From the NCBI GenBank assembly GCA_964537715.1, contig CAZIAH010000005.1, forward strand, positions 4,465-68,464: a stretch of 64,000 nt of DNA, in the 5' to 3' direction. This stretch comes from an uncultured bacterium. GTDB taxonomy: Bacteria > Zhuqueibacterota > QNDG01 > DSAB01. The notes below the pieces were generated by a model. The model saw only the letters and a list, made by a program, of their open reading frames with translations. It did not search any database and was not told the origin of the DNA. Numbering within the stretch: the stretch's first letter is position 1; each line of letters starts with the position of its first letter. Made by a program: the position numbers and the translations under genes. Below, in pieces: positions 14,226 through 54,138 of this stretch.

Positions 14226-15482
14226 TTATTTAGCATTCTTCAGAATAATGGCATCACCTTCTTCAACGTTGATTGTCAGACCGGAAAGATCCAGACCTTT
14301 GACATTTTCTACGATAAAACCCGTTTTCGCATTGATTTTACAATTCTCAAAGACAACATTCTCAATAGGACTTTCATCGAGTCCGTACATATCGCCTACC
14401 TTATCAACAGTACCGGAAACATTGATAATCTTTACATTGCGAACAACTGGCAATGGATCAGAGGGTGGTTTGATTGGCGGCACCATACGCCAGGCCATAT
14501 TGAATTCAAAAGCTTTACGGGTTTTTTTAAGCGTGATATCACGATAAGTGATATTTTCCACCACACCGCCGCGGCTTGGTTGCGATTTAAAGCGAATAGG
14601 CGCCCAATTATCAGCTTCAACCACGCAATTGCGAATCTCAACTTTACGGATACCACCGGACATTTCACTACCCATTGAAACGCCACCGTGACCATAACGT
14701 AAATTGCACTTTTCAACAAGAATATCCTCAGCGGATCGATTGACGCGCCTCCCATCTTCATCTTTACCGGATTTAATGGCGATGCAATCATCATTTACAT
14801 CAATATCGCAATTGGTGATGCGGACGCGGGTGCTGGAATCGACATCGATACCATCGGAACTGATGATGTTGTGTTCAGCACGGATGGTCAGGTTTTCAGC
14901 AACGACGTCTTCGGAATAGAGAATGAACAAACACCAGCATGCTTGGTTTTTTAAATTCAAGTCGGACACCAGCACATTTTTGCAGTTCTGAATGGCGATC
15001 AGGCGCGGCCGTCCAACCTTCAATTTTTCACTTCCGCGCGGATAGCGTTCCATCCACTGATCACCCGATCCATCAATAGTTCCCTCGCCTGTAAATTTGA
15101 AGTCGGTCATTTGAAATGCATTGATTAAAGCAGACGTCCATTTCTTTTCCTCACCTTCCCAACGCGTGAACACCTGGGGATAATCATCGGGATTATCTGT
15201 GCCTTTTAACACACCGTCTTTTTCAATATGGAGATTAACGCCCTGCTTAAGAAAAATGGCTCCGGTGAGAAAAACACCTTTAGGAATGACCAGCGTACCG
15301 CCGCCTTCTTCGGCGCATTTGTCAATCGCTGCCTGGATGGCTTTGGTATTTAACGTTTGACCGTCATCGACAGCGCCGTGATCTGTAATAATAGTGCGCT
15401 TGGTCGGTTTTACAGATGAGCAATTAAGAAAGGTTAGAGAAAAAATGATTAAAATGATAACTGTGATGGATTTTCGAAACAT
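14226..15482 (-). CDS. GH28 glycoside hydrolase (polygalacturonase/rhamnogalacturonan hydrolase family), lipoprotein
   Basis: 418 aa. Lipobox LTFLNCSS. Canonical GH28 motifs SDGIDVDSS, NDDCIAIKSG, GHGGVSMGSE and RFK. SD GAAGGAG before the ATG. Confidence 0.85.
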   Translation of the reverse strand: MFRKSITVIILIIFSLTFLNCSSVKPTKRTIITDHGAVDDGQTLNTKAIQAAIDKCAEEGGGTLVIPKGVFLTGAIFLKQGVNLHIEKDGVLKGTDNPDDYPQVFTRWEGEEKKWTSALINAFQMTDFKFTGEGTIDGSGDQWMERYPRGSEKLKVGRPRLIAIQNCKNVLVSDLNLKNQACWCLFILYSEDVVAENLTIRAEHNIISSDGIDVDSSTRVRITNCDIDVNDDCIAIKSGKDEDGRRVNRSAEDILVEKCNLRYGHGGVSMGSEMSGGIRKVEIRNCVVEADNWAPIRFKSQPSRGGVVENITYRDITLKKTRKAFEFNMAWRMVPPIKPPSDPLPVVRNVKIINVSGTVDKVGDMYGLDESPIENVVFENCKINAKTGFIVENVKGLDLSGLTINVEEGDAIILKNAK

Positions 15483-15552
15483 TGATTACTCCTTCAGAGA
15501 TAAAAAGGATTATCTGACATTGTTTGATATTCTGTCCGGCTGATGCCTCAAA

Positions 15553-17580
15553 TCACTTAAGCAGTACCATTTGACGGGATTGACTGACTGTTTCTCCACC
15601 TGTATTTATTTCCATTCTGTAGATATAAACACCGGAAGCCGCAAAATCGTTGTAATCATTGCGCCCATTCCAGCTTATTTCAAAGGTGCCTGCAGATTGA
15701 TGCTGATTGATAAGCGTTCGCACCTTTTCTCCCTTCAGATTGTAGATGTTCAACCGGATATCGGCCGAAGTCGGTAATGAGTAACAAATGGTGGTTGACG
15801 GATTAAAGGGATTGGGATAATTCTCTAAAAGTGTGAAAGTGTCCGGGAAATCATTGTTGATGTGTTTAACAATAGTCGGGGTATTATTTATTTTCTGAAT
15901 GAGTTCAATACCTTCACCTGTACCCAGATTGCGGCTGTACTGTTTGTCTGTAGAATTATTCCAATGTTCGTGTACTCCCAGGCTTTCTAAGCGTGTGCCA
16001 TCGCCTTCCGGATCATAGAACGTTTCTGATGGTGGATTATCAGCCTGGGCCGCTTCATGAAGATAATTATCCGCAGTACCATCCGGTACGCCCCAGTCTG
16101 AGCACCTTAAAAAATCCAGCAGCACGGACTCCATAGCGACAAAATCCTGGCTCATGAACAGACTTGATGCCGGGCCGCCATTGAAGGGTTCTATCGACCA
16201 TGGTACTTTACGAAGACGTTCGGCTAACAACAGAAAGGTTTTCCCTCCCAGCTCTTTATGCCCCATAAGATCAACCAGTACATTGTAGGAACCCATTGGA
16301 AGCTCATGCCAGTTACCAAGGGTAAGGGCGGCAACCCCATAGTGCATAAAGTACGGACACCAGCCATGGTAATAATAAGAATTCGTTCCAGGAGGGTTGG
16401 GATGGTAGACCGAGCCGAAGAAGTTCTTGGCACAGCAGGTAACACCTGCTAGTTCATGAGCGCGCGGCAGACAAAAACTGATAAGATACTTTGCCTCTGA
16501 AGCTACTGTGGGCAGACATACCTTGCCGCTGCTACCCGGTACCAGAGTTGTATCGCTATAATATATCACACAGTTAGTATCGGGTACTACCTTTTCGCGG
16601 GTACCGGGATTATCGCCAGGGCCGTTTTCATAACCATGTCCATCAACACGGTCAGTGCAATCGCCTTCGGCCCAGCGCACACCCGGAAAGTCTGTATGAC
16701 AGTAGTTATATATGGGATCGCCATGATAGAAAACGCAATCATAGAAGGTAATATCCTCATCCGGCACGCCTGCTTTACTTACAAGATGCCAGATCAGAGC
16801 ATAAATCATTTGCGGACTATGCCGGTTTTCCTGATTGTCAGTCCATTCGTAAAAACGGGACTCAATATTATTGATTTTTATGGCAATTTTATCACCAGCC
16901 TGATAGCCTGTATTATCCTGGTTGTAACGCTCTTTATTGAAGTATTTGAAAAGGGAATCCCAAGCTTCGGTTGGATCGCTAATCCCTGTCATGTTGGTTA
17001 GCGCCAGGGTCATCATGTTCCGGGCGACTTCAGGATCGGTGCGCTCATCATCCCACCAATCCCCATCCTGCCTGCCTTGATCACAGAGTAGGCTGTCATA
17101 AACCCACACAACGCGTCCGGGATGAATCCCTTTGGCCGTACCTATCGGAGTATTGGGCGAATCAGTGGGGGTAAAATTTGTTGTACCGAAAATGTTTGCA
17201 GCTGATGCAGAAACATCGCGTATATCATTCATAGTGAAAAAACAAACCAGTACAGCCGTTACAAATGAGATTGCCCCAACGATATACTGCCGTTTTTGGA
17301 AGAGGTGACGGGCCTTACACACTATAAAAGTGGACCCCAACAATCCTAACAACCAGGTGATAAAACCCGCTGCTATTGGTTGTGCTACCCGTTGGCAGGG
17401 ATAGGCCGCGCGGCTGGGCTTGGGTACTACCCGGATAAGAACCCAGACAACAGAGGCCAGACCAATCACAATCCACAACCATGGCGTCTTTCCTTCTACT
17501 TTTTTAAGTCCGGTTATTTTACCGGTTCTGGAGCACACTGTGAACCGTTTCATGATCAGTCGTCTGATATTTGAAAACAT
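15553..17580 (-). CDS. Membrane-anchored protein with DUF362-like central domain and T9SS C-terminal sorting domain, function unknown
   Basis: 675 aa. ATG 17580 is preceded by the SD CAGGAGTAA. Three hydrophobic N-terminal segments (WLWIVIGLASVVWVLIRVV, IAAGFITWLLGLLGSTF, IVGAISFVTAVLVCFF). Central region with GDKIAIKINNIE and Cys/His-rich stretch. C-terminal LLENYPNPFNPSTTICYSL...LLK matches the T9SS CTD. Confidence 0.4.
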   Translation of the reverse strand: MFSNIRRLIMKRFTVCSRTGKITGLKKVEGKTPWLWIVIGLASVVWVLIRVVPKPSRAAYPCQRVAQPIAAGFITWLLGLLGSTFIVCKARHLFQKRQYIVGAISFVTAVLVCFFTMNDIRDVSASAANIFGTTNFTPTDSPNTPIGTAKGIHPGRVVWVYDSLLCDQGRQDGDWWDDERTDPEVARNMMTLALTNMTGISDPTEAWDSLFKYFNKERYNQDNTGYQAGDKIAIKINNIESRFYEWTDNQENRHSPQMIYALIWHLVSKAGVPDEDITFYDCVFYHGDPIYNYCHTDFPGVRWAEGDCTDRVDGHGYENGPGDNPGTREKVVPDTNCVIYYSDTTLVPGSSGKVCLPTVASEAKYLISFCLPRAHELAGVTCCAKNFFGSVYHPNPPGTNSYYYHGWCPYFMHYGVAALTLGNWHELPMGSYNVLVDLMGHKELGGKTFLLLAERLRKVPWSIEPFNGGPASSLFMSQDFVAMESVLLDFLRCSDWGVPDGTADNYLHEAAQADNPPSETFYDPEGDGTRLESLGVHEHWNNSTDKQYSRNLGTGEGIELIQKINNTPTIVKHINNDFPDTFTLLENYPNPFNPSTTICYSLPTSADIRLNIYNLKGEKVRTLINQHQSAGTFEISWNGRNDYNDFAASGVYIYRMEINTGGETVSQSRQMVLLK

Positions 17581-17615
17581 GGATTACTCCTGTTGAAATA
17601 ATATCTTCGGTTAAA

Positions 17616-19088
17616 TTATGAAGATTTTTTCCGTTTCTGCAAATCTTTTTCAATTGTTATCAACAAGTTATCATTGACCGGATAAAAGAACAGCAATAGA
17701 CCACAAACTGCTAAAAAACCAGCAGGAATAAGACTAAACAACCATTTAATACCATTTAGCGTATGGGGCATGATCGTTTCACCTTTGATGTAGCCGAATT
17801 GGCCCAACATATAAAGCGCCAGAAATCCACCAACAGCCACACCCGCCTTGATTGCAAACATGATCCCGGCAGTGACCAGTCCTGTTGCGCGTTGTTTAAA
17901 TTTCCATTCGTGAAAATCGGCCACATCGGCGAACATGGCAAACAGAAACACCGGCATAGCGCCGGCCAATATCGCCCAGATAAAATTCATAACACAGAGC
18001 AGTATAAAATTAGACTCCGGCAACCAGTAGAAAATCGCACCGAAAAAAGCACCCGCCAATGTGACCACAATGATAGTCAATTTTTTATCAAAATATTTTT
18101 TAAGCGGTGTGCTCAAGAAAACACCGACCATCATACCCACCGTACCAACAGTAAGAAATGTCGTGGTTTGGTCGAAATCGAGTTTGAGCGTACCAATAGT
18201 AAATGACCACAACACCTTGCTGCCCTCGCCGTTCACATAATCAAAATAATAAGCAACCATACCGTTGCGAATCATGTTATGGATGAGCCAGAATATGGAG
18301 GCAACAAATATCACGATCCAGGGGATGTTTTTTGATACATTTTTCAGATCACCAATAAAGGAACTTTTCTGCTCTTTGGGTGGTGCTACACGTTCACGTG
18401 TGGTGAGAAATGTAATGAGCAGCAGAATAATGGCAATAGTTCCGAATACGCCCATCGTTACCTGGAAACCCAATGCCTGGCTGTAACCCAGATCAGGATT
18501 GTAGCCCGGATGTGACGGATTATTTCCAAAGAACCGAGCCAAAGGCAGAGTGAACGTCGTAATCAGCATCGCACCAACAAAGGCGAAAAAGAAGCGGTAC
18601 TGTGCCAGCGTCGTCCGCTCTTTGGGATTTGGCGTCATCACTGCCATCATCGAGGAGTAGGGAATGTTGATAGCCGTGTACGCCATGGTGGCTAAAATAT
18701 AGGTGACATAGGCATAAACCACTTTCATACTTTGGCTGAGGTCCGGCGTGATGAACATAGCGAAGGCCAGAATACCGTAGGGAACAGCCATCCACAATAA
18801 ATAGGGGCGAAATTTACCCCAGCGGGTATTGGTTCTGTCCGCAATCATCCCCATGATAGGATCGTTAATCATATCCCAAACACGAGTGATGAGGAACATG
18901 AAACTGGCCACTTTTGCGTCGATACCAAACACATCCGTGTAAAAAATCATCAGAAAGAAGCTCCAGGCCTGGTACAGAATATTGGACGCCGTATCCCCAA
19001 GTCCGTAGCCGATCTTTTCGACAACGGATAAGTGATTGCCTAAGCCACTAAAGTTTACTTCCGAAGCCGAATTTTTGTGTTCGTTCAC
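17616..19088 (-). CDS. GPH-family glycoside-pentoside-hexuronide:cation symporter (MFS superfamily)
   Basis: 490 aa. 12 predicted TM segments. GPH signature region GYGLGD..NILYQ..FFLMIFYTDVFGI...DRTNTRWGKFRPYLL. Confidence 0.85.
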   Translation of the reverse strand: MNEHKNSASEVNFSGLGNHLSVVEKIGYGLGDTASNILYQAWSFFLMIFYTDVFGIDAKVASFMFLITRVWDMINDPIMGMIADRTNTRWGKFRPYLLWMAVPYGILAFAMFITPDLSQSMKVVYAYVTYILATMAYTAINIPYSSMMAVMTPNPKERTTLAQYRFFFAFVGAMLITTFTLPLARFFGNNPSHPGYNPDLGYSQALGFQVTMGVFGTIAIILLLITFLTTRERVAPPKEQKSSFIGDLKNVSKNIPWIVIFVASIFWLIHNMIRNGMVAYYFDYVNGEGSKVLWSFTIGTLKLDFDQTTTFLTVGTVGMMVGVFLSTPLKKYFDKKLTIIVVTLAGAFFGAIFYWLPESNFILLCVMNFIWAILAGAMPVFLFAMFADVADFHEWKFKQRATGLVTAGIMFAIKAGVAVGGFLALYMLGQFGYIKGETIMPHTLNGIKWLFSLIPAGFLAVCGLLLFFYPVNDNLLITIEKDLQKRKKSS

Positions 19089-19108: not shown

Positions 19109-21292
19109 TTACAAATCAACAATTTGAATACCATGGGGTTCAAGGCTTACTTCAACCGTATTCCCTTTATCATCAAATACCTTTGTTGTTTCCACATAGT
19201 CACTGCTGCTTATGACAACAAGTTTTTTATTTTTGGGATACCAGGCACAGTCGGTTTGAACATTACTGCATGTCCATGCTTTATATTCCGGTTCCATCCC
19301 GGCGCTGGTAAAAAGTGATCGATGCAGTAGGCGTGAGTTTTCTGGTGAAAATTTAAATCCGGACAGGTAGATTGCTTTTCCTTTGCCGAATGAATGCAGG
19401 GTAATTTGTGGGGAACCATCTTTCTCTGCCAATACAGTTGTCTCTTTGCTAAGCACAAAAATGTTATCAATATCTTTACCAAAATCGATGTCGCCACTTA
19501 TATCTTCCAGAATAAAATGCTTTGATGAAGCCGTGACCGGCAATTTAACATTACACATCGTCAACCCAATTTCGCGGTCAACACCAAGCAGATGCGCCAA
19601 CTGGAAATATTGACTCGAACATTTTACCGCTGAGGGTTCACCGATTCCTATAAATCCGCCGCCATTCGCAACCCATTTGGTGATCGCTTCAATCACTTTC
19701 GCGTCTTTCCAGTAATCACCGCCGCTCCATGCGGTTCCACCCTTTCCGGCATTGATGATAACATCTGTACCTTCGGGAATGCCATTTTCCAGAATATCCC
19801 TGAAACCTGTAAACGAAACATCCACTGGTAATCCGGCAAGGGATTCCGTAACCTCATAAATTTCAACGCCGGGTATAAAGTGACCGACGTAATCCCATGA
19901 ACGCCATTTACCCCACGCAGTAAGAACAACAACTTTCAGCGGTGCAACATATGGCCCTCCATCTGCGTGAAATTGTTGAAACGTGCGGAACTCATTGGCA
20001 ATATGATCAATCGCTTCAACAAACTCAGGAAAGTCCTGCACAAGATGCAGGTAGCCACCCAAACCGATACGGTCAATGGGTATGCGAAGCAGACCGCGGC
20101 GTATGTTGGCCCAGAAATGCTTGGCATCCAGCGCCGGATCGCCTCCTTCCATAAAAGTTGGTTCGCCTTTTAAACCAGTTGGGAACAGGTAAGGATGCAA
20201 ACGCAGCTCTTTGGTTTTTACACCTTTCACACCTGCGCAAAGTCTGGCTTCAAACGCATTGAATACACACTTGATTAAACCATCAAATCCAAACTCTTTA
20301 TACCGATCGCCCCAGGGCTCGGTGCCAACCCAATGATCATCGTAAAACATATAAGCCACTTTACCGGATTCGTGGACTAAGTCAATACACTTGCGACCAA
20401 AACTGACGACAAACTCATTCATAAAATCCATCCAGTCCCACAAGCGGTCGGAAGGTACATTATGGCTGGAGCAGTAAGCACCGTTGCTGACAAAATCTTC
20501 ACTGGTCATCTGGTAGCCTTTGGTTTCGGCAAACAAACGCATGGCACGCGGGCTTACAGTCATCTCGTATGATCCCCAGTCGGCATAACGGAATTTCTGG
20601 ATTGAAGGATCGCCCCAGAACCAGGCAAAATTATAAAACAGGGATGTGAAGCGTACGATTTTTGTTTTGGGACGTTCATCAAGCCACTTTTTCAGTGTGC
20701 TGAGAATGGCTTCTTGCGCTTCCGGATAAATGGGATCGACGGGCATTTGGTGTTCGCGGTCACCCCAGTCATTGGTAATATGGTTGTACATGGAAATACC
20801 TTCCCATATACGGTAGGCTAAAAAGTTAATCGTGTATTTGTGCCACCTTTGGACATTTTTAATAGTCACACTACCATTCGTTGTATCAAATACCCATAAC
20901 TCTTTCGGTACTTCTTCGCCGGTCGTACGGTCAAACACCTGCCACCATGCTTTGGGATCATCATTGGCATTCACTTCAAATTGTTCACGGAAGAAACCTT
21001 TCAGCAAATCGATTGTAATCGTTTTACTTTCTGCCACTACCGGATCGCTCATCAGATAGTTCTGTTGAAGTTTATCACGATTTGCTTTGGCCCACTCGTT
21101 ATCTGAACGGATCAGGCATATTGTAGAATAGATGGGATAATCCGCCTGAATAATTTTTTCAGATAATTGTATGCCGTCACTATCGCGAATAGCATCTGCA
21201 CCCCAACGTTCCGCAAGTTCCAGGGTTAAATTTTCATATCCTGCCTCACCAGGCAAGGTAAAATTTCCTTTTAAATTCTGTTTATCAGTCAT
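19109..21292 (-). CDS. GH112 phosphorylase (lacto-N-biose / D-galactosyl-beta-1,4-L-rhamnose phosphorylase family), cytoplasmic
   Basis: 727 aa, no signal peptide. Many blocks recalled from Bifidobacterium LnpA are conserved: LELAERWGADAIRDSDG, VFDRTTGEEV, INFLAYRIWEGISMYNHITNDWGDREH, IVRFTSLFYNF, MTVSPRAM, HWVGTEPWGD, IDRIGLGGYLHLVQDFPEFVEAIDHIANEFR. Confidence 0.8.
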   Translation of the reverse strand: MTDKQNLKGNFTLPGEAGYENLTLELAERWGADAIRDSDGIQLSEKIIQADYPIYSTICLIRSDNEWAKANRDKLQQNYLMSDPVVAESKTITIDLLKGFFREQFEVNANDDPKAWWQVFDRTTGEEVPKELWVFDTTNGSVTIKNVQRWHKYTINFLAYRIWEGISMYNHITNDWGDREHQMPVDPIYPEAQEAILSTLKKWLDERPKTKIVRFTSLFYNFAWFWGDPSIQKFRYADWGSYEMTVSPRAMRLFAETKGYQMTSEDFVSNGAYCSSHNVPSDRLWDWMDFMNEFVVSFGRKCIDLVHESGKVAYMFYDDHWVGTEPWGDRYKEFGFDGLIKCVFNAFEARLCAGVKGVKTKELRLHPYLFPTGLKGEPTFMEGGDPALDAKHFWANIRRGLLRIPIDRIGLGGYLHLVQDFPEFVEAIDHIANEFRTFQQFHADGGPYVAPLKVVVLTAWGKWRSWDYVGHFIPGVEIYEVTESLAGLPVDVSFTGFRDILENGIPEGTDVIINAGKGGTAWSGGDYWKDAKVIEAITKWVANGGGFIGIGEPSAVKCSSQYFQLAHLLGVDREIGLTMCNVKLPVTASSKHFILEDISGDIDFGKDIDNIFVLSKETTVLAEKDGSPQITLHSFGKGKAIYLSGFKFSPENSRLLHRSLFTSAGMEPEYKAWTCSNVQTDCAWYPKNKKLVVISSSDYVETTKVFDDKGNTVEVSLEPHGIQIVDL

Positions 21293-24242: not shown

Positions 24243-26558
24243 TTATTTCAGCAACATCATCTTCTTAACTTTAACGAAGTCACCAGATTCAATGCGGTAA
24301 AAATAGATACCAGATGAAAATGATGCAGCTTTGAATGAAACAGTGTAGACACCGGCAGCCTTTTCCTGATCTACTAATGTAGTAACAACTTGACCTAACG
24401 CATTATAGATCTTTAATGTTGTCTTGCCTGCTTTCGGTAAGCTATACTTAATAATGGTCTCCGGGTTAAACGGATTTGGATAGTTTTGCTCAAGAGCATA
24501 AACTGTCGGGATTGTACTGTTAGCTTCAGCAACCGAAGTCGGTTCTTCAACTTTCCCAAGCTCAGCCATACGGGCAACTTCATTGAAGAAGACTTGCTGG
24601 GCATCATCAGAGAAGTTATCGTAATTGAATGGGCCTGCTGCCGTTTCATAAAAATGGTCATTACCGTTTCCAATTAAAGTACGGTAGCCAGCAGCATAGT
24701 CACCCGCGCCATCGTAAAACTCTGTCCACGGATCCCAACGTACAAAGAACACATTGGAGTTGCTGGCAGAGCGCGCTAATACTGTGCCGTTACCGCCATC
24801 TGTGGTCACAATATAATCGTATGGAGTAGAACACCAATCCATCGTACTATCCGCTGCAAGAGTGGCACCGGCGAATACAGCATCATCCGGGGTTTCTATT
24901 TTGGCGCTAACGGTTTCACCAGCAACATCGTACGTAGTGATCGAGGTTGATTGTAGCCAGTTTAATCTGTTGCTGCGAGCAGCCCATGGCGTCATCAGCA
25001 CTAAAGGAGAAGTGATGGCGTTCCATGTCGGTTTTTTTGATGCATCAAAGTTTCCGCTAAGAGGTGAACGTGCGACGATAACCAAATCAGCAGCATTCAA
25101 AGTATCAATCAGGCCCTGGGAAGCTTGGCTAAGATCTGCGCTGAATACTGTGCTAACAGCATATCCCTGTGCTTCTAATCCATCAATTAAATATTGGTCA
25201 GCGTGTTCTTGTATATCAGGATTCATCTTGGCGGGATCGCTGAAAAGAACAATTTCTTTGTCCAAACCTACCGGTTTTTCAACTTTTCCAAGCTCAGCCA
25301 TACGGGCAACTTCATTGAAGAAGACTTGCTGGGCATCATCAGAGAAGTTATCGTAATTGAATGGGCCTGCTGCCGTTTCATAAAAATGGTCATTACCGTT
25401 TCCAATTAAAGTACGGTAGCCAGCAGCATAGTCACCCGCGCCATCGTAAAACTCTGTCCACGGATCCCAACGTACAAAGAACACATTGGAGTTGCTGGCA
25501 GAGCGCGCTAATACTGTGCCGTTACCGCCATCTGTGGTCACAATATAATCGTATGGAGTAGAACACCAATCCATCGTACTATCCGCTGCAAGAGTGGCAC
25601 CGGCGAATACAGCATCATCCGGGGTTTCTATTTTGGCGCTAACGGTTTCACCAGCAACATCGTACGTAGTGATCGAGGTTGATTGTAGCCAGTTTAATCT
25701 GTTGCTGCGAGCAGCCCATGGCGTCATCAGCACTAAAGGAGAAGTGATGGCGTTCCATGTCGGTTTTTTTGATGCATCAAAGTTTCCGCTAAGAGGTGAA
25801 CGTGCGACGATAACCAAATCAGCAGCATTCAAAGTATCAATCAGGCCCTGGGAAGCTTGGCTAAGATCTGCGCTGAATACTGTGCTAACAGCATATCCCT
25901 GTGCTTCTAATCCATCAATTAAATATTGGTCAGCGTGTTCTTGTATATCAGGATTCATCTTGGCGGGATCGCTGACAAGAACGATTTCTTTAGGATTCCA
26001 ATCAGTACTAGGATTAAAAGTATCGCTGGTTGTTACAATGATATGATCTATGGCAGCCCCTCTTTCTCTGAGATAAATTGTCAATGTATGAGCTCCTGCA
26101 GTAGGAATATTAAAGGAAGTAGGTCCCTTTACCCATTCCCATACTCCGTAACTTCCATGTGGAATCATATCGTTTTGACTAGCAATACTATCACCTAGGC
26201 CATAGTAGAATGAGTCATTCTGTCCATCAATAAAATACTTGCGGACCCAGATGTAGTGTGCGCCGGTTTTCGTGAAGTTTATATTATAAGATAAAGCAGG
26301 CGCATCAGTCTCAGCCGTTGTATTTGGATTATAAACTCCAGCATCCGTACCTTGCATATAGCTTGAACCTAAAAATCCTGCAAAAGTGGTTGAATCAGCA
26401 AAAGTATCACCCTTGGATCCATCGCGCAGCGAATCATAGTCTTCAGCCGGCATTGTGACTAAACCAAGAAAATCAGATTTCTGGGTGAAGTCGGCGTATG
26501 CGCTGCTAAAACAAAGCAGCACTAATGATAACAGAATGAAAGATAACTTATCTCGCAT
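24243..26558 (-). CDS. T9SS-secreted protein: N-terminal beta-sandwich (CBM-like) domain, two near-identical 244-aa alpha/beta repeat domains, T9SS CTD; no recognisable catalytic domain
   Basis: ORF track start is GTG 26636. Preferred ATG at 26558 is preceded by AAGGAGGAGGAA and gives signal peptide MRDKLSFILLSLVLLCFSSAYA. Internal 732-bp tandem duplication (see the repeat feature). C-terminal LEQNYPNPFNPETIIKYSL...LLK. Confidence 0.6.
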   Translation of the reverse strand: MRDKLSFILLSLVLLCFSSAYADFTQKSDFLGLVTMPAEDYDSLRDGSKGDTFADSTTFAGFLGSSYMQGTDAGVYNPNTTAETDAPALSYNINFTKTGAHYIWVRKYFIDGQNDSFYYGLGDSIASQNDMIPHGSYGVWEWVKGPTSFNIPTAGAHTLTIYLRERGAAIDHIIVTTSDTFNPSTDWNPKEIVLVSDPAKMNPDIQEHADQYLIDGLEAQGYAVSTVFSADLSQASQGLIDTLNAADLVIVARSPLSGNFDASKKPTWNAITSPLVLMTPWAARSNRLNWLQSTSITTYDVAGETVSAKIETPDDAVFAGATLAADSTMDWCSTPYDYIVTTDGGNGTVLARSASNSNVFFVRWDPWTEFYDGAGDYAAGYRTLIGNGNDHFYETAAGPFNYDNFSDDAQQVFFNEVARMAELGKVEKPVGLDKEIVLFSDPAKMNPDIQEHADQYLIDGLEAQGYAVSTVFSADLSQASQGLIDTLNAADLVIVARSPLSGNFDASKKPTWNAITSPLVLMTPWAARSNRLNWLQSTSITTYDVAGETVSAKIETPDDAVFAGATLAADSTMDWCSTPYDYIVTTDGGNGTVLARSASNSNVFFVRWDPWTEFYDGAGDYAAGYRTLIGNGNDHFYETAAGPFNYDNFSDDAQQVFFNEVARMAELGKVEEPTSVAEANSTIPTVYALEQNYPNPFNPETIIKYSLPKAGKTTLKIYNALGQVVTTLVDQEKAAGVYTVSFKAASFSSGIYFYRIESGDFVKVKKMMLLK
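24538..26001 (-). repeat. In-frame tandem duplication, two copies of 732 bp (244 aa), inside CDS 24243..26558
   Basis: Copy A about 24538-25269, copy B about 25270-26001. The copies are identical except about 5 substitutions clustered at the copy boundaries. Plus-strand antisense ORFs are duplicated with an offset of exactly 732 (24629/25361 and 24862/25594). Confidence 0.9.
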
Positions 26559-26758
26559 TTCCTCCTCCTTCATTTTGTTGTACGAGTTAATGTGATTCAT
26601 GACCTTTACTTCCTGAATTGTTATAAGAAATCTCACCTCCTTTCTTCAATAAATTTTTGATGAAAATATTAAAGCAAATGATAGATTTAAAAATAAATAT
26701 ATATTTGCCTTCACCGATAATCATACACCTGGCATATATTAATTATGGATGTACGAAC

Positions 26759-28456
26759 TTACTTTAAAAGTAGCATCTTCTTTTGAATCCAATAAGATCC
26801 TGATGAGTTTAAAATTTTTAAACGATAAAAATAAATTCCCGATGAAACTTGCTCCCCTGAATCATTTCTGCTGTCCCATTGTACTCTGAATTCACCTTCA
26901 TTCTGGTATTGTTGAGCAAGAGTCTTTACTTTTTGACCAGCACAGTTATAAACATTTAAAGTTACATGAGCAGGTTTATCCAGAGCATAACGAATTGTAG
27001 TTGTCGGATTGAATGGATTCGGATAATTCTGAAATAAGCTCATATTATCAGGCACGATTTTATTTTTATCCTCAACGGCTGTAGTGTTCTCAACTTCAAA
27101 TGCTCCAAGATCGGGTGCATTATTAAGAAAGGGGAATCCAATATCCACACCGGCGTCAATAATGGCACTTCCGGGAGCCGGACGTAAAAAATCAATGTCA
27201 GGTAAACTGCCATTCTCTTTGCGGGGCGACGTTAATAAATCCATATCAAGACTTATAAAATCGTCATCTGATAGAGTGATTGGCAAATCAAATGAATTGT
27301 ATTCCGAAGTATTTTGGGCGGTATCGATATACGCTGTATGCTTATATCCTATTACCTTCTGATAACTTAGGTTGTTTTTAAGCACATGATCATAGCCATC
27401 ACCGTCAATATTATCTGCATCGTCACGGCTTGGACGGTTTAACATATTAAAATTGGTTACATTCAGATAGGCTGAATTGTTGAACCAGTCATTTCCTGCT
27501 AAATGATGGTTAGAATAGAATCCATTAGCTTTATTCTTCACGGCAACACAAAACCTGACAGTATTTCTTGGAACCGGATCAGGGATTTTATCTGCTGTAT
27601 CATGCGCATATCCGCCTGCTTTAAAACCGTTTCCATCTCCCAGACTTTGAAAGTTTGATGAATATCCGTTATAAAAAGCCCAGCAACTGTCAAAAACAAC
27701 GGATTCATCGGCGCGGATAATATCAAAGCCGTCATCACTGTTAAACCAGGCGCGGCAGCCTCTAAAAACATTACCGGCGCCACCAGCATCGGGATGACAG
27801 CCAAAACCATCACAATTGCTGCCCAATCCATCTTCCGAAACATTATCCCAATTTCGATACGAATCACAATTTAAAAACAAATTGCCGCCACCTTTATAGT
27901 GACGCAGCCCGGTGCCAACATTGTTGTGCATGCTGATCTGTTCATATATATTATTATTCCCCCGGCTGTAAATACAATAAGACTCGGTGTGTGTTGTAAT
28001 GGTTACCTGAATGCCGGTCATTTCCAGCCCTTTAAGGTGAATATAACTTCCGGCCATCCAGATACCTACCACACGTTGATCGGCCGGCTTAACAGCGGAA
28101 AAATCAAAAACAGGCTGCTCACCCGGATATGCCCAGTACTTTATAGTTTGTCCGGCCAGGCCGCTTTTATCCAGATAACTAATACAGGCAAATAAATTCT
28201 GTTGAACGCTGGATATCTGGTTTTCCCGAACATTGTATAATCCGCCACGAATGTAAACTGTGTCACCTGGATTAACGAAGGTCTGAGCTTGTTGAATGGA
28301 TTCGACAGGTTGATCGATTGTTCCCGGATTTGAATCGTCTCCATCCGGCGCCACAAAATATTGAGATGCGAAAGAAAGATTTAGAATTGCCAAGATAAAT
28401 ATGGTGATTAAAATCAATCTCATAATTTCCCCATTTTTTTCAACTGGTTTTTTCAT
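26759..28456 (-). CDS. Right-handed beta-helix pectate-lyase-like protein (PL9-like candidate) with T9SS CTD
   Basis: 565 aa. Signal peptide. N-terminal YFVAPDGDDSNPGTIDQPVESIQQAQTFVNPGDTVYIRGGLY cap typical of PL9/pectate-lyase-fold proteins. Asn/Gly-rich coil repeats. C-terminal LFQNYPNPFNPTTTIRYAL tail. ATGA overlap with the downstream gene. An alternative ATG at 28423 is possible. Confidence 0.55.
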   Translation of the reverse strand: MKKPVEKNGEIMRLILITIFILAILNLSFASQYFVAPDGDDSNPGTIDQPVESIQQAQTFVNPGDTVYIRGGLYNVRENQISSVQQNLFACISYLDKSGLAGQTIKYWAYPGEQPVFDFSAVKPADQRVVGIWMAGSYIHLKGLEMTGIQVTITTHTESYCIYSRGNNNIYEQISMHNNVGTGLRHYKGGGNLFLNCDSYRNWDNVSEDGLGSNCDGFGCHPDAGGAGNVFRGCRAWFNSDDGFDIIRADESVVFDSCWAFYNGYSSNFQSLGDGNGFKAGGYAHDTADKIPDPVPRNTVRFCVAVKNKANGFYSNHHLAGNDWFNNSAYLNVTNFNMLNRPSRDDADNIDGDGYDHVLKNNLSYQKVIGYKHTAYIDTAQNTSEYNSFDLPITLSDDDFISLDMDLLTSPRKENGSLPDIDFLRPAPGSAIIDAGVDIGFPFLNNAPDLGAFEVENTTAVEDKNKIVPDNMSLFQNYPNPFNPTTTIRYALDKPAHVTLNVYNCAGQKVKTLAQQYQNEGEFRVQWDSRNDSGEQVSSGIYFYRLKILNSSGSYWIQKKMLLLK

Positions 28457-29184
28457 TTCAGTTCGTACACTTTAAAATGTTCCACTTCCTGATGCGATTT
28501 CACCGTTCGAAAGCCAAAATAACCTTCAGTTAAGGGCTCGTTATCCTTAAAAGAAAAATACGGCTCACTATCCACAAAAACCTGAGTCGTTCCATTGTAA
28601 ACCACAATTTGAATCAAATAATTTCTATTGGGTTGAAGCAGGTGCTGCTCATCTTGTAAATCAAATAAAAGCGAGCGTTCACCGGTTCCCTGATATTTCC
28701 GGAAACGAGTGGTGCTATTACTGTTGCCGCCAATACCGGCATAATAAAGCCGCAGAGAATCATATTGTGAAAATATTCCGTTTCGTGTAAACACATTTTC
28801 CTGTCGAGGATCGATTGCCATCCAAAATTGATTGAGATCGGACAAACGATCGTTTTTTCCATTGTTCATGACCACTTTTCGATGGTACTCAATCATGATG
28901 TTCCCTGACAGCTTTTTATTAAACCAGACAGTGGCGCCGTTATCGACATCAATGACCAGCTTGCCTTTCTCAATCCCCACTTTTGAGTTGGGTGAGTTCG
29001 GCGTCTCAACTATCCAATTATTCATATCCTGTTCAAAATTATCATTATAAAGTAGCTGGACTTTTTTATACTGCTCAACAGAACCTGAATCAGCAACGTT
29101 TTGGGCCTGTATTGTGTTCTGAAATCCACATGTAAACAAAAAGCACAATAAAATCAATAAAATAGTGAAATCAATTTGTCTCAA
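28453..29184 (-). CDS. Small secreted beta-sandwich (ConA-like lectin/glucanase-fold) protein, possibly DUF1961/YesU-like
   Basis: 243 aa. TTG start at 29184 with strong SD TTAAGGAGGT 5 nt upstream. Signal peptide MRQIDFTILLILLCFLFTCG. Mostly beta composition. Family call is from weak recollection only. Confidence 0.35.
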   Translation of the reverse strand: MRQIDFTILLILLCFLFTCGFQNTIQAQNVADSGSVEQYKKVQLLYNDNFEQDMNNWIVETPNSPNSKVGIEKGKLVIDVDNGATVWFNKKLSGNIMIEYHRKVVMNNGKNDRLSDLNQFWMAIDPRQENVFTRNGIFSQYDSLRLYYAGIGGNSNSTTRFRKYQGTGERSLLFDLQDEQHLLQPNRNYLIQIVVYNGTTQVFVDSEPYFSFKDNEPLTEGYFGFRTVKSHQEVEHFKVYELK

Positions 29185-29199
29185 GGATACCTCCTTAAT

Positions 29200-30540
29200 C
29201 TATTCGATTGTCACCTTAACTTTTGCCGAAAGTTGTTGCACCAAATTTGTGATATAGTCTTTGAAAAAATCAGCGTCTTTAAAACGTTCATCGCTCAATT
29301 CCCATCCCGCCGCTGCATAGTAGGTAACAGGTTTATCATTTTCAACTTTCAACCTGGCCAAGTATGTATTGCTCAATGGCCCCTGTTTCGGCGCCTCCGT
29401 ATAACCAAGATACAGATCACTTGGTACAATCAGCGCCATTCCAAGCCACCATTGACGGTTATAAGTCTGCATATCATGAGTCAACAAGACCTGCCATTGA
29501 TCATTAACGGAGATGACCTGCAGCGGATTTTGGTTATTGCTGTTCACCAGGCCGACGATCAGTTCTTCATCGCCCTGCAATCCAGAAAACTGTACTGTAT
29601 TTTGATAGGCATACATACCCGGCCAGATGCTGGTGGTTTCATCTACCTGGTAGTTTCGTCCTTCATCCGGTTGCCAGTTTTCATAATGATAGCTTAAAAC
29701 CGATTTCACAGGACCTTCCGCCATAATGCGGAATGTGGTTTTCTCAACATTGTTGATCGAATCATCAACCGTTACACCCAGACGCAGCAATTGGTCACTG
29801 GTTTTCAAACCATAACCCCCAAGTCCCACAGAGTTGCCGACCGACAGGATATCGCGCCCCCAATCCGCCATGACATGATAGTTATCTTCGACGGCACCCT
29901 GTTCATTTATCCCAACATTTTCTGGTGACATAAATGAAGCCGTTTTCCCAAACAAATCGTTGGCATTGCGACCATCCAGATAATGGCGGAAACCAATTTT
30001 ATCATTTTCCCATGAAGGGCCATCGGTCTGGTAGCGCTGGAAACCGATACTCTTTGGCAAATCCCCAGCATATAAAGTCTCGCTGACCGCAGGTTCTACC
30101 GGGGTATCAGTAGAACTGCGCTTTCCAAAACGGGCGCTGGTACGCACGATATATTTGGGCTCTTTATTTACCCACAGTAAAAAATATGTTTCCGTTGTAT
30201 TTGCAGGCAAATTGACTACAAAAAATAATTCATCCCATTTTTTATCTCCATTAAGATCATTCAATTGAGAAGCAACCGTATCGCCCTTATCAGAGATAAT
30301 CAACGGGTAATGGGTACCTGCCCCAGGACTTTCAATTTGTGAGCGGTCAATAGATATGGCCTTATCAGTCAGGACAATCGCAAAGTTGTTTGCAAGAGTC
30401 ATCTTTGTCTTTCCAGGCACAGGCTGACATTGGTTAAGAAGAAAGATTGAAATCAACACAGCACTTGTGGTTAATGCAAAATGATTTTTTATTTTGCCTA
30501 ATGTTGCCCCTTTATTTGGGTGTTTTAAATTATTCTTCAT
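29200..30540 (-). CDS. Lipoprotein of unknown function (possibly DUF4861-like)
   Basis: ORF 29200..30597. ATG at 30540 gives MKNNLKHP...ISIFLLNQC (lipobox). It overlaps the upstream gene stop by 11 nt. No catalytic motifs recognised. Confidence 0.35.
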   Translation of the reverse strand: MKNNLKHPNKGATLGKIKNHFALTTSAVLISIFLLNQCQPVPGKTKMTLANNFAIVLTDKAISIDRSQIESPGAGTHYPLIISDKGDTVASQLNDLNGDKKWDELFFVVNLPANTTETYFLLWVNKEPKYIVRTSARFGKRSSTDTPVEPAVSETLYAGDLPKSIGFQRYQTDGPSWENDKIGFRHYLDGRNANDLFGKTASFMSPENVGINEQGAVEDNYHVMADWGRDILSVGNSVGLGGYGLKTSDQLLRLGVTVDDSINNVEKTTFRIMAEGPVKSVLSYHYENWQPDEGRNYQVDETTSIWPGMYAYQNTVQFSGLQGDEELIVGLVNSNNQNPLQVISVNDQWQVLLTHDMQTYNRQWWLGMALIVPSDLYLGYTEAPKQGPLSNTYLARLKVENDKPVTYYAAAGWELSDERFKDADFFKDYITNLVQQLSAKVKVTIE

Positions 30541-33292
30541 CTTGTATCCTTGGGTTATCTTCAGGAAGTTGGTCGCCGATAAAATCCAGCAATTCAATAG
30601 CGTTCAGACACCATTGTGCAGTGTTATTGGTGGAAACTCCCTTCACCTCATACACCGGCTGCAGGCTTTGAACTCCGTCAAATAGCTGCATAGTGAAATC
30701 AGTATAATAATATCTGTCTCCGGTATTAAAAAACTCATCCCAGGCTCTTTCTGCATAGGTTTTGTCCCCCGTCATTTTCGCATAATAGGCCGGAAGACGG
30801 GCATACCATGGGCCAGGTTTCCCCAACTCAACCGCTATACCGAATTCTTTTTCAATTTCATTTTCAGGTGCGGCATATAATCTACAGAACTGCATCCAAA
30901 GTTTGTCCCATTTTTTATCCTGAAGAAGATGGGTCAATTCAAAAGCAACTTCAGGACCTCCCATCAAAACAGATAAATGTAGATAGCCGATATCATTTTC
31001 ATCCAGTTGATGCAATTTGTAGGTTTCCGGATCGTATCCAAAGGCCGCTCGCTTGCCGGAATAGAAACCATAGGGCATGTCATACAAACTGTTCACTCCG
31101 GCCATGATTCGGTCACGATACATTGTATTCCCTGTGCGTTCCCATTCAGTCATCCAGTTGCCAACCAAGGCCAGCCAGTCAGGGCCAACGCGGGCGTGGG
31201 TTGGGTATTTGCTTTTTTCCAATATCAAACGAAGCGGATCAATTTTGCCAATTGCTTCGTTGGAAGCATCCACAGTCGCACGCATCAAATCGCCTGTTCG
31301 TTCATCCGTGGTGAGATAATAATAAAATCGACCTAAAGCTGCCTGCGAAATACGCACCTCTTTGGCGCCGCAGCCCCAATGAATCACGTTGTGACGGGAA
31401 CCCAATCCCTTAAACCGTCCCAAATGATAGACATCGACTTCGCCCGTGTGACGCATCATCGCCTCTGCCATGCGGAAAATATCTTCACGTCCAGATCTCA
31501 GATAACTGTACCACAACCACAGGTTGGGCATCAATTCGGTATTGTCCCAGGCATAGCCTCCCATATCGTATTTCCAGGTGTGCCGGTCATGATCGTAACT
31601 ATGCCTTATGTCACCATAATTCCAGAAGCCATACCAATGCCTCTGCTCCACTTCCAACTGATAGTATTTAATCGCATTGTCAAGCTGATCCTCTATCCAG
31701 CGCTTTCCTTTTGTACTTCGGTCAGGTAAACTCCACACGCCGAAAACAGGAATGCTGTGGATATATTCCGAAGAGACAATAAGTAAAGGTGGTTGATTCC
31801 CCAGGTGTACAATTTTATTCAAGGTTCCATAAGACGGTACTTCGGGTGATGCATACAGCAGAATTTCGCTTGTGCGAGCTACCCCGGTGGCTGTGCTGAA
31901 TCCCGGTTGAACATCTTCATAACTGGCCTGGAGTGTGTGGCCCCAGGCAAGTGTGTCGTAATGACGCATGTCCATGGCCTCGGCCTCAGGAGACCAGAGC
32001 CAGGCCATCAGTTGGGCCTCATCATCTTTAACATTGCGAATTTCCAACGCTGATGGAAAGGATTGCCAAAAATCACGAACACAAACCGTCAATCCGCCGG
32101 ACACATCCCCGACAAAAGCCATTCCTTCGGAACGTTTGCCATAGCCGGCGTCAATCCAGGCGCTTTCATTGTTGGTTCTTTTTTGCACCCGAAATCCATC
32201 GGCATTCAATTGTTCCAGCCTGAAATCATTCCAGCTTGCCCAGTGCTCAAACAGGAATTGTACTTTTTCAGGGAAACTATCAGGTTCGGCAATCCGTTCG
32301 CCTGTAAGCTGTTTGGCGTAAAAGTTTTCACGGGTTTCAAAATTAAAGAGCGGGAAACTGCCGTTGAGCGGCTGGCATGGTTCATCCCACAATCCTCCGT
32401 TTACTCCCGAAAAACGAATATGCCGGTTATATAACTGTTCATCCAACGGCACGTTAAAAACCAGCCCCAGACCACGGATAAAATCTTTTTGTTGATCCCC
32501 ATCGTAAACAATGGTATTTACCATACGAATCGATTGCAGTCCGGCATAAAAATACAACCGGACAATAAATGGCAACCAGCTTCGGTTGGTTGAGTCCGAC
32601 ACGTGCCTGCCTTCAATTTTAACCACTGCCCTGACCGGACCACTCTGCTCGATGGTTACTCTTTCGACTATACCTGTGAACTTTTCTTTGGATGGCTGAA
32701 CACCGAATTCCTGATCCGGTCCATTCTGAAGAATACAAATCAGTTTTCCATCGGAAGAAATTACTTTTCCATTCATTTTTATAGAACGAATTAAGAGTCT
32801 GCCAATTTTTGGAATTTCGCATTGCATAATACCGGTACTAATCAGTAAAGCATCATTGGATTCAGATAATTCGACCTTTGTTTTTGGCAGATTAGCGCCG
32901 GACTTTTTTACATGTTCCAGTACGAAAGCAGTTCCGGCATTGGAATCGACTACAGCGCTTAGGCCTACCCATTTTAGGGAACCATCCGGCCAATATGCCA
33001 AAGGCCAGGATTGCACAGGCAAAGCCTCTCCCTGTTCATTTTTCAATATATAACTGCTCGATGGATCAATCTCCCCTTCCGGCAGCGGCACACCCCAACT
33101 TACTCCTGCTGAAATCGACGGGGCCTTTCCTCCAAGCCATGATAGTTTAATCGGGTCGACTTCCCGGGCAAATAGCGTATCCTGATCAATACCAACAATG
33201 ATTAATAACCAGCAAAATAGAATTAGCCAAATTCTTTGCTTACATCGATAATGATGTTGTAAGGTTATCAAATTATTTCTTATGAATTGCAT
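30530..33292 (-). CDS. Large secreted protein of unknown family (candidate polysaccharide lyase/hydrolase with alpha-helical toroid-like C-region)
   Basis: 920 aa. Signal peptide IWLILFCWLLIIVGIDQDTLFA. Trp/Tyr-rich helical segments (HWYGFWNYGDIRHSYDHDRHTWKYDMGGYAWDN, NLWLWYSYLRSG). No family recognised. Confidence 0.4.
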   Translation of the reverse strand: MQFIRNNLITLQHHYRCKQRIWLILFCWLLIIVGIDQDTLFAREVDPIKLSWLGGKAPSISAGVSWGVPLPEGEIDPSSSYILKNEQGEALPVQSWPLAYWPDGSLKWVGLSAVVDSNAGTAFVLEHVKKSGANLPKTKVELSESNDALLISTGIMQCEIPKIGRLLIRSIKMNGKVISSDGKLICILQNGPDQEFGVQPSKEKFTGIVERVTIEQSGPVRAVVKIEGRHVSDSTNRSWLPFIVRLYFYAGLQSIRMVNTIVYDGDQQKDFIRGLGLVFNVPLDEQLYNRHIRFSGVNGGLWDEPCQPLNGSFPLFNFETRENFYAKQLTGERIAEPDSFPEKVQFLFEHWASWNDFRLEQLNADGFRVQKRTNNESAWIDAGYGKRSEGMAFVGDVSGGLTVCVRDFWQSFPSALEIRNVKDDEAQLMAWLWSPEAEAMDMRHYDTLAWGHTLQASYEDVQPGFSTATGVARTSEILLYASPEVPSYGTLNKIVHLGNQPPLLIVSSEYIHSIPVFGVWSLPDRSTKGKRWIEDQLDNAIKYYQLEVEQRHWYGFWNYGDIRHSYDHDRHTWKYDMGGYAWDNTELMPNLWLWYSYLRSGREDIFRMAEAMMRHTGEVDVYHLGRFKGLGSRHNVIHWGCGAKEVRISQAALGRFYYYLTTDERTGDLMRATVDASNEAIGKIDPLRLILEKSKYPTHARVGPDWLALVGNWMTEWERTGNTMYRDRIMAGVNSLYDMPYGFYSGKRAAFGYDPETYKLHQLDENDIGYLHLSVLMGGPEVAFELTHLLQDKKWDKLWMQFCRLYAAPENEIEKEFGIAVELGKPGPWYARLPAYYAKMTGDKTYAERAWDEFFNTGDRYYYTDFTMQLFDGVQSLQPVYEVKGVSTNNTAQWCLNAIELLDFIGDQLPEDNPRIQDEE

Positions 33293-36401: not shown

Positions 36402-37040
36402 TCAATAAATAATTAAATGTTGTTCTTTAGGGCCATGCATACCAAGGATTAATTCCATGGAAATGTCCGCTGTACGACTTGGGCCCGAAATAACAATCGT
36501 ATTACTCGGGTTTGTAAATTTTTCTATACCTTTACAACGACAATCTTCAATCCAGCTTTCAAAGTCAGCGAAAATCTGCCCTTTTTTGATCAGGGCAATA
36601 TGAACTTCCGGCAACAAAGAAGCTGTACGTTGGCGACCTTTCCCGGAACGAAGTACGATACTACCGGTTGCTGCCAAAGCTGCACTGACACCTGTTATGC
36701 CAAACCGGATACTTTCTTGTTGTGTAATTTCGATTCCATTGTCTTCTAAAGACTGGTAAAGATTTTTAATCGGCAAATTTTCTGAACTCCAGCAATTGAC
36801 CTGCTGGTCGTTGCCAATAATTTTAAAAAGTGTTTTTTGTGCATCCTTTTCATTGGTGCAGATCGTTACCTGGGCAGAGAGTTTTTCTGCTTCTGATTTA
36901 AAATATTCCAAAAGTGATGCGGGATCCTTCTTGTCCAGTTTAACCATTGGTAAATAGTTTTCAACCCGGCTTTTCTCTGGAAAGGGAACCGCAATATTTT
37001 TGAGCTTATTTAAAATATCATCCCGACTGTTACTCATCAT
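36402..37040 (-). CDS. lutC: LutC-like lactate utilisation protein C (LUD/YkgG domain)
   Basis: 212 aa. ATGA overlap with the LutB stop. Size, composition and position are typical of LutC. Confidence 0.65.
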   Translation of the reverse strand: MMSNSRDDILNKLKNIAVPFPEKSRVENYLPMVKLDKKDPASLLEYFKSEAEKLSAQVTICTNEKDAQKTLFKIIGNDQQVNCWSSENLPIKNLYQSLEDNGIEITQQESIRFGITGVSAALAATGSIVLRSGKGRQRTASLLPEVHIALIKKGQIFADFESWIEDCRCKGIEKFTNPSNTIVISGPSRTADISMELILGMHGPKEQHLIIY

Positions 37041-39209: not shown

Positions 39210-39242
39210 TGAGGTTATCCTATTTTTTGATTTTAAAAAGGT

Positions 39243-54121: not shown

Positions 54122-54138
54122 CACATCCTCCATTTTAT

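Follow-up and report, generated by a model that had tools for sequence, protein, structure and literature searches.

The 64,000-nucleotide stretch analysed here (hereafter the window) is part of contig CAZIAH010000005.1 of an uncultured bacterium of the Zhuqueibacterota (GenBank assembly GCA_964537715.1; contig positions 4,465 to 68,464), and the gene under study lies at window positions 15553..17580 on the minus strand, as do all features of that gene given below. It is an open reading frame of 675 amino acids plus a stop codon that starts with ATG, and an AGGAG Shine–Dalgarno sequence can be read 6 nt upstream of the ATG (17587..17591). The encoded protein combines three N-terminal hydrophobic helices, a core of the DUF362 family and a type IX secretion system (T9SS) C-terminal sorting domain (CTD). 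This three-part architecture had been proposed in an earlier note on the same DNA, and it is borne out by a hydropathy scan and by matches to the profiles PF04015 (DUF362) and TIGR04183 (T9SS CTD). A search of 5.8 billion proteins with the full protein gave 2618 matches, and more than 100 full-length homologues of 60–85% identity cover the N terminus; the architecture is therefore real and no chance product. In alignments, the N-terminal residues of the homologues are kept from residue 1 or from M10. Where the sources name these homologues, they are called only 'DUF362 domain-containing' or 'T9SS sorting domain-containing' proteins. Conservation and C-terminal tails were counted in 57 long distant representatives, taken from clusters of less than 50% identity.

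A Kyte–Doolittle scan gave exactly three hydrophobic peaks, at residues 34–52, 69–87 and 99–117, behind a basic tail of 32 residues, which matches the earlier description of about 30 cytoplasmic residues followed by three hydrophobic helices. The tail (residues 1–32; 17485..17580) carries a net charge of +8 and contains an F-T-V-C16-x-R-T-G-K knuckle; its C16 is kept in 70% of the distant representatives, and AlphaFold2 (AF2) models a small β-hairpin at residues 13–25 with low confidence. The first transmembrane segment (TM1; residues 33–52; 17425..17484; hydropathy peak 2.29) leads into a periplasmic loop at residues 53–64 (PKPSRAAYPCQR; 17389..17424) with an invariant cysteine, C62, and is followed by TM2 (residues 65–87; 17320..17388; peak 1.99). 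A basic cytoplasmic loop, CKARHLFQKR (residues 88–97; 17290..17319; net charge +4), may form the n-region of a signal peptide inside the chain, whose proposed h-region is TM3 (residues 98–117; 17230..17289; peak 2.22). Beyond TM3, where the net charge is −1, a linker (residues 118–142; 17155..17229) carries V-S-A-S-A-A at residues 123–128, where signal peptidase I is proposed to cut behind A127 or A128. Together with the well-established positive-inside rule, this charge pattern predicts an N-in/C-out topology, in which everything beyond residue ~118 lies outside the inner membrane. The AF2 model of the full protein has a predicted local distance difference test (pLDDT) score of 74.8, with a confident core and CTD and a disordered linker at residues 119–142 (pLDDT below 50).

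Judged by its conservation, the N terminus is made of two parts. TM1, the loop at residues 53–64 and TM2 have mean pairwise identities of 56%, 83% and 47% among the 57 representatives, against 48% for the core, and as a unit are more conserved than the core. The loop is the most conserved segment of the whole protein: its motif, PKPSRAxYPCQ, is near-invariant and C62 is found in 57 of 57 sequences. The basic loop at residues 88–97 falls to 31%, and TM3 (22%) and the linker (16%), the least conserved parts of the protein, appear to evolve like a signal peptide. The earlier note had thus seen the helices correctly, and had not singled out the conserved TM1–loop–TM2 hairpin among them. Such conservation implies that the hairpin may have a role of its own in the targeting or maturation of the enzyme.

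The segment that follows TM3 is rich in Ala, Ser and Thr, with 17% Ala compared with 7.4% in the mature part, and an AxA motif occurs in 48% of post-TM3 16-mers compared with 8.5% of control 16-mers. The core opens with a conserved NxPxG, and in 53 of the 57 representatives the 18 residues in front of it contain an [AVILSTGC]-x-A site without a following Pro, mostly 4–9 residues ahead of NxPxG. Shuffles of the same segment kept such a −3/−1 site in 41.1 ± 3.1 of 57 sequences (maximum 51 in 1000 shuffles), and random 18-mers from the core carry one in 40% of cases. These features are those of a signal peptidase I site, and we infer cleavage from the motif statistics. 'Anchor', the word that the earlier note had used for the N terminus, is therefore probably the wrong one, because the statistics of TM3 and the linker match those of a cleavable signal peptide. 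That note had rightly remarked on the lack of an ordinary N-terminal signal peptide: the four other T9SS-CTD proteins of the window all start with ordinary short ones, and the present protein is the exception in its own locus.

The N-terminal module (TM1–loop–TM2 and TM3) had no match in Pfam or NCBIfam, and on its own it matched nothing among PDB sequences at E ≤ 10. Short database matches that looked like stand-alone copies of the module proved to be truncated or frameshifted fragments of full-length genes. Other export signals were considered and rejected: a Tat signal, as there is no twin arginine (CKARHLFQKR, KARHLFQKRQ) and RR is not kept in the relatives, and a bacterial lipoprotein signal, as the lipobox L-[AS]-[GA]-C is absent and the context of the invariant Cys is A-x-Y-P-C-Q.

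The core (residues 143–565; 15886..17154) is supported by Pfam PF04015, AF2 and Foldseek. In a Pfam hidden Markov model (HMM) search, PF04015 scored 28.1 bits against a gathering cutoff of 24, which upholds the DUF362-like domain of the earlier note; the match spans only residues 353–487, corresponding to positions 89–198 of the 200-position profile. NCBIfam gave no match for the core, and neither library matched it to a glycoside hydrolase, lyase or esterase. Three motifs stand out in the distant representatives. The first is the strand motif K231-I-A-I-K235-I-N237-N238 (16867..16890), with K235 and N237 kept in at least 85%; in relatives, the beginning of the DUF362 profile falls on this motif. 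It is followed by H375-E-L-A-G-V-T-C-C-A-K385-N386 (16423..16458), in which H375 is kept in 100% and K385 and N386 in at least 85%, and by H537-E538-H539-W540-N541 (15958..15972), in which H537 is kept in 89%, H539 in 96% and E538, W540 and N541 in at least 85%. Conserved histidines outside these motifs are H413 (96%), H508 (82%) and H441 (77%), and D281, D437, D479, D489 and R156 also reach at least 85%.

A core-only AF2 model had a predicted template modelling score (pTM) of 0.86, and its 16 best Foldseek matches in the PDB were all lactate racemase LarA or LarA homologues (E from 1.7e-4 to 4e-2, probability up to 0.99, TM-score ~0.3, 9–16% identity). Over all Foldseek searches, the LarA-type matches had E values from 1.4e-4 to 4e-2 and probabilities of 0.9–1.0. 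For the modelled core, the LarA superfamily is the only significant fold match in the PDB, and the relation is distant. Consistent with a LarA-like fold, DUF362 and the LarA family DUF2088 belong to one Pfam clan, CL0471 (PMC11770544). What the core has in common with LarA and its homologues (PDB 5HUQ, 2YJG, 9EIA and 7S91) is the fold and the clan and, tentatively, the register of an H-x2-AG-x-S/T-x3-K motif. We compared it with the catalytic His174, the second catalytic His108, the cofactor-tethering Lys184 and the Ni ligand His200 of LarA, using a reference sequence confirmed as identical to 5HUQ_A. H375-E-L-A-G-V-T-C-C-A-K385 aligned without gaps on LarA H174-F-F-A-G-F-S-G-G-R-K184 (hhalign E = 0.085, not significant alone). 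A second family profile agreed only on the His and placed K385-N-H on A198-N-H200, so that the two profiles, at E values of 0.07–0.085 and with partly conflicting registers, provide a lead and not a result. H108 of LarA has no conserved counterpart, as there is no conserved His after the D281 strand (2% for H286). The His of the relatives' 'KNH' is F387 in the present protein, and the equivalence of H413 with LarA H200 is ambiguous. Unlike LarA, the protein has no Pfam match to DUF2088 or LarA_N at E ≤ 1, and the family profile found neither LarA nor anything else relevant among PDB sequences. The genes larB, larC and larE are absent from the 64-kb window. Membership of the nickel-pincer enzymes is not established, because the hhalign E value is 0.085, the second profile conflicts with the first and H108 has no conserved counterpart.

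The metal-binding-looking Cys/His cluster of the earlier note is present in this protein, which has 15 Cys and 19 His, and is not a feature of the family. No core Cys is conserved in more than 54% of the distant representatives (C282 2%, C355 7%, C383 54%), and the DGH insert at residues 308–315 is missing from 53–56 of the 57. The Cys/His-rich stretch is, on this comparison, mostly a peculiarity of one clade. As no core Cys is conserved, a Cys-based, iron–sulphur or thiolate centre is unlikely; the more reasonable expectation is a site lined with His, Asp, Glu and Lys that probably binds a metal or cofactor.

At the C terminus, a disordered linker (residues 566–585) precedes a T9SS type A CTD (residues 586–675; 15556..15825), so that the sorting signal reported in the earlier note is confirmed. 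TIGR04183 of NCBIfam scored 31.2 bits against a curated cutoff of 23 (residues 588–667 of 675), the Pfam family FlgD_ig scored 33.4 against 27, and Pfam Por_Secre_tail reached 23.3, below its cutoff of 27. In the PDB, the CTD of PorU ranked first in sequence and also in fold, and the motifs NYPNPF and GVYIYR and a terminal LLK can be seen in the sequence. The CTD is retained in many homologues. No gene for T9SS machinery lies in the 64-kb window; at least four other T9SS-CTD proteins are encoded there, which indirectly supports the presence of a T9SS in the genome.

The family is widespread. Residues 1–132 matched 988 clusters at E ≤ 1e-3, and 657 at E ≤ 1e-10, among 1.84 billion cluster representatives, and almost all of the matches listed begin within ~100 residues of the protein N terminus. 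In all 57 long representatives the N-terminal module is followed by DUF362, some of them matching profile positions 1–200. Relatives occur in at least 402 stretches of species-representative genomes, and the 79 loci examined span at least nine phyla, Bacillota among them. The groups represented are Bacteroidota, Ignavibacteriota, Calditrichota, KSB1, Fibrobacterota, Planctomycetota (many), Acidobacteriota, Verrucomicrobiota, Elusimicrobia and Bacillota. The C-terminal tails vary: among the 57 representatives we counted Por_Secre_tail and Dockerin_1 (7 each), the carbohydrate-binding modules (CBMs) CBM6 and CBM35 and the domain Laminin_G_3 (4 each), CBM9 and GH115_C, the C-terminal domain of GH115 enzymes (3 each), malectin and F5/8C (2 each), as well as PKD, SGL and β-helix domains. 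A Bacillota member (Anaerocolumna) is fused to CBM6, CBM35, CBM32 and a GH64 glucanase. The conserved unit is thus the N-terminal module plus a core of ~420 residues with swappable tails, arranged like a carbohydrate-active enzyme of the modular, extracellular kind. Moreover, dockerin, CBM and T9SS tails would make no sense on a protein kept in the inner membrane, which argues that the family is extracellular.

Several members show further variation. In two Bacillota loci (L074 9965-14584 and L079 9914-15282), a GH64 β-1,3-glucanase with CBM6/35/32 is fused to the family protein (Anaerocolumna) or encoded after it (L079), and a large GH2-like gene lies ahead of the family genes. Proteins P0114, from a Sedimentisphaerales metagenome-assembled genome (MAG), and P0117–P0120 have Asp-rich repeats (GDFEPDGDVD...DLDGDCDVDL), dockerin- or EF-hand-like, in place of the T9SS CTD. 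In a truncated sequence, P0165, the N-terminal module precedes a more canonical DUF362 domain (VVLKPN..., LKNH...), and the module may therefore extend beyond the subfamily with the enlarged core.

The window is largely taken up by one same-strand locus of ~30 genes and ~58 kb for the use of rhamnogalacturonan-I (RG-I), which bears out the pectin-locus setting of the earlier note. That note had also placed the gene between a GH28 and an import and phosphorolysis module, and this is what we find. A GH28 glycoside hydrolase gene (14226–15482) lies 70 bp away on one side; on the other, an MFS_2/GPH transporter (symporter) gene (17616–19088) lies 35 bp away and a GH112 phosphorylase gene (19109–21292) beyond it, the two making up a disaccharide import and phosphorolysis pair. 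Neither the 35-bp nor the 70-bp gap holds a terminator-like site, so that co-transcription is likely. For regulation and uptake, the window has a LacI regulator, a TonB-dependent receptor and a CTD-only protein. Its backbone and side-chain enzymes comprise a GDSL esterase, four GH2 enzymes, a GH115, a polysaccharide lyase of family PL11 with a CTD and two GH88/105-type hydrolases, together with a PL26-like PcRGLX protein, a PL9 with a CTD, two GH28 enzymes, a GH78 and a GH106. Rhamnose catabolism is represented by an FGGY kinase, a class II aldolase, LutABC and a RhaA-like isomerase, and DUF4861, DUF6250 and PKD proteins are without known function.

A number of these genes, all on the minus strand, merit separate mention. 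The LutA/B/C-type lactate-utilisation genes occur with the FGGY kinase, class II aldolase and RhaA-like isomerase (36402-41404 and 58607-59821), giving the pectin locus a complete-looking route from rhamnose to lactaldehyde and lactate. The DUF6250 and DUF4861 proteins lie between the PL9 and the PL26-like lyase (28453-30597) and are candidates for pectin-related roles. In a 797-residue protein inside the RG-I locus (24243-26636), a clear T9SS CTD (47.6 bits) is the only credible domain in Pfam, and a 466-residue open reading frame without a Pfam match (34959-36359) lies between a GH88/105-type hydrolase gene and the LutABC genes. The CTD-only protein, of ~565–572 residues, adjoins the TonB-dependent receptor (52415-54133 and 54343-57339); the same pair is also found beside DUF362 homologues in two loci from different MAGs (L001 3884-8710 and L006 1725-6565), and the CTD-only protein might be a surface glycan binder in place of SusD.

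Gene context elsewhere links the family to glycans in general. Near one homologue (P0032, Ignavibacteriota) we found a PL26-like gene, PL9, a TonB receptor and rhaM, and near another (P0068) PL9, a TonB receptor, LacI, GH35, GH31, GH106 and GH88; in the two loci concerned, L001 and L006, the homologues adjoin PL9, PL26-like, GH106, GH88 and TonB-receptor genes. Other homologues examined lie near GH3/GH2 or GH11 genes or have no informative neighbours. Homologues of any one neighbour from the window turned up in at most 4 of 59 loci, and clustering of the neighbours in those loci gave generic families only, the commonest being GH2 (13), hybrid two-component regulators (7), sulfatases (7) and GH29 (5). 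The closest relative in a genome, in a Calditrichaceae MAG (L008 1587-3562), matches window positions 15510-17593 with 84% nucleotide identity. This similarity is restricted to the DUF362 gene and the flanks are unrelated, so that the locus holds no information on context and suggests rearrangement or transfer of the single gene. The family is generally glycan-associated, and the link to pectin belongs to the window and two homologue loci, not to the family as a whole; the co-occurrence with pectin loci that the earlier note had proposed to look for holds for a minority of loci only.

We give roughly even chances to a reading that sees in the protein an exported enzyme associated with glycans. 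It would belong to an uncharacterised DUF362 subfamily with a distant LarA-type α/β fold, and would be made as a pre-protein with a bipartite N-terminal leader. In this model, the basic tail would remain cytoplasmic and Sec would insert TM1 and TM2 as a hairpin, with the periplasmic loop PKPSRAxYPCQ under strong sequence-specific selection. TM3, the basic loop before it and the Ala/Ser/Thr-rich −3/−1 segment after it would act as an internal Sec signal peptide that passes the chain to the periplasm, where signal peptidase I would cut near A127/A128, freeing the core and CTD and leaving a three-helix fragment of ~125 residues in the inner membrane. The type A CTD would then pass the folded core to the T9SS and across the outer membrane, for release or surface attachment, and the core would act outside the cell on plant cell-wall polysaccharide, here RG-I or its side chains. 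The active site would comprise His375, Lys385, Lys235, Asn237, His413, Asp437, Asp479 and His537-Glu538-His539, and would most likely depend on a metal or cofactor. A metal-dependent carbohydrate-active enzyme, as the earlier note had suggested, is still the best guess; the grounds for it are the conserved His, Lys, Asp and Glu and the carbohydrate-binding tails of the relatives, not the Cys/His stretch.

Several observations weigh against this model. TM3 is ~20 residues long, more like an anchor than the h-region of a signal peptide, and in the protein studied D119, R121 and D122 separate it from the AxA site; the strong conservation of TM1–loop–TM2 is not accounted for by a mere leader. The fold match to LarA is too distant for a reaction to be derived from it, the gene neighbourhood is not conserved across the family, with no partner gene in 59 loci, and pectin genes lie near a minority of loci only, so the assignment of a substrate is weak. 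In an unlikely but credible alternative, the three helices stay in the inner membrane as a lasting anchor, the DUF362 core, held by its flexible linker, acts on imported oligosaccharides in the periplasm, and the CTD is vestigial or otherwise used. The anchor-like length of TM3 would suit this arrangement, as would an AF2 helix at residues 99–130 that runs, with low confidence, through the proposed cleavage site, an N-terminal module conserved like the core, as a functional membrane domain would be, and the position of the gene next to an oligosaccharide importer and a cytoplasmic phosphorylase. However, the CTD scores above a curated cutoff and is kept in many homologues, relatives bear dockerins and CBMs for insoluble polymers, the −3/−1 motif is enriched beyond composition, and TM3 and the linker are the least conserved segments. 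A quite different cut, with TM1 as the real signal peptide, cleaved after PKPSRA, and TM2–TM3 as a hairpin anchor, is very unlikely, and so is a Tat or lipoprotein signal. The sequence P-K-P-S-R-A, then x-Y, does place Ser at −3 and Ala at −1 behind a 20-residue hydrophobic stretch and a basic n-region, but near-invariance of the loop is unlike the c-region of a signal peptide and a cut there would leave the core anchored; for the two variants, the target lacks a twin arginine, RR is not conserved and Y-P-C is not a lipobox.

The remaining alternatives concern the chemistry of the core. That the protein is a true LarA-type enzyme, which carries the nickel-pincer nucleotide or a related tethered cofactor and racemises or epimerises a sugar acid outside the cell, seems improbable to us. 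In its favour, the only PDB fold matches belong to the LarA superfamily, and H375-x2-A-G-x-T-x3-K385 aligns ungapped with LarA H174...K184, both residues being conserved in the family. CBM35 and CBM32 can bind uronic acids and GH115 enzymes are α-glucuronidases, so that the CBM35, F5/8C and GH115_C domains of relatives would tie these tails to sugar acids. But the DUF2088 HMM does not match, the hhalign E values of 0.07–0.085 are not significant and the runs disagree on the partners of K184 and H200, the counterpart of H108 is not conserved and the 'KNH' His of the family is Phe here. LarA enzymes are cytoplasmic and depend on a cofactor made by LarB, LarC and LarE, and a Sec-exported protein would have to gain this labile cytoplasmic cofactor outside the cell. 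The remaining proposal, which the earlier note had raised, is a redox or iron–sulphur-type metal centre in the Cys/His stretch, or a transmembrane sensor. The 15 Cys and 19 His would fit the former, and Pfam describes DUF362 in some iron–sulphur proteins (quoted in PMC5742341), but the core Cys are kept in only 2–54% of the representatives, the DGH insert is absent from 53–56 of 57, and a Pfam scan finds no ferredoxin domain. A sensor would have only the 32-residue tail and the 10-residue loop in the cytoplasm, without a signalling or output domain. We therefore regard neither version as having more than a slim chance.

DUF362 is a known Pfam family of uncharacterised function, and the HMM match, the K-x-N strand and the H...G-x-T...K-N motifs are common to both; the subfamily described here differs in being predicted to be extra-cytoplasmic, in lacking conserved Cys, in ~200 extra core residues and in having an N-terminal membrane module of its own that no library searched could match. 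Ordinary T9SS type A cargo, such as the PL9 and PL11 lyases of the window, shares the type A CTD and the locus, but has a signal peptide of 20–30 residues where the present protein has ~128 leader residues with a conserved hairpin. We know of no precedent for such a leader among T9SS cargo or cellulosomal proteins. DUF362–CBM9–dockerin proteins have been described in lignocellulose enrichments from beaver and moose gut and flagged as a candidate new carbohydrate-active family (PMC5742341); they resemble the present family in carrying CBM and cellulosome modules as tails on DUF362, but that paper describes no N-terminal module, T9SS variants or activity. As the earlier note had said, the function of the protein is unknown: Pfam, NCBIfam, PDB sequences and the literature searched contain no assignment. 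In the literature, searches on DUF362 and PF04015, on LarA combined with CBMs and on internal cleavage by signal peptidase in bacteria returned no characterisation of this family, and they turned up no description of its conserved membrane hairpin, bipartite leader, T9SS variants or breadth.

It is conceivable, though unlikely, that the hairpin with its invariant periplasm-facing Cys is a new cis-acting export or maturation device, supplied 1:1 with the enzyme and released from it by signal peptidase. Such a device might, for example, deliver or install a cofactor or modification, the recipient being an exoenzyme with a LarA fold in which the nickel-pincer His/Lys pair is retained. If that were true, the family would introduce a novel type of bipartite secretion leader and, with it, a novel class of carbohydrate-active or auxiliary enzymes working outside the cell, spread across at least nine phyla.

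About 1000 protein clusters contain the conserved unit, which may represent an unrecognised enzyme activity, joined in them to CBMs, dockerins, T9SS signals or glycoside hydrolases. Should cleavage of the leader take place as proposed, the proteins of this family may escape secretome predictions that rely on signal peptides. Widespread and testable, the family bears both on secretion signals and on missing carbohydrate-active activities, and is a candidate for a carbohydrate-active or auxiliary activity that models of how plant cell walls are broken down in guts, soils and anoxic sediments do not include.

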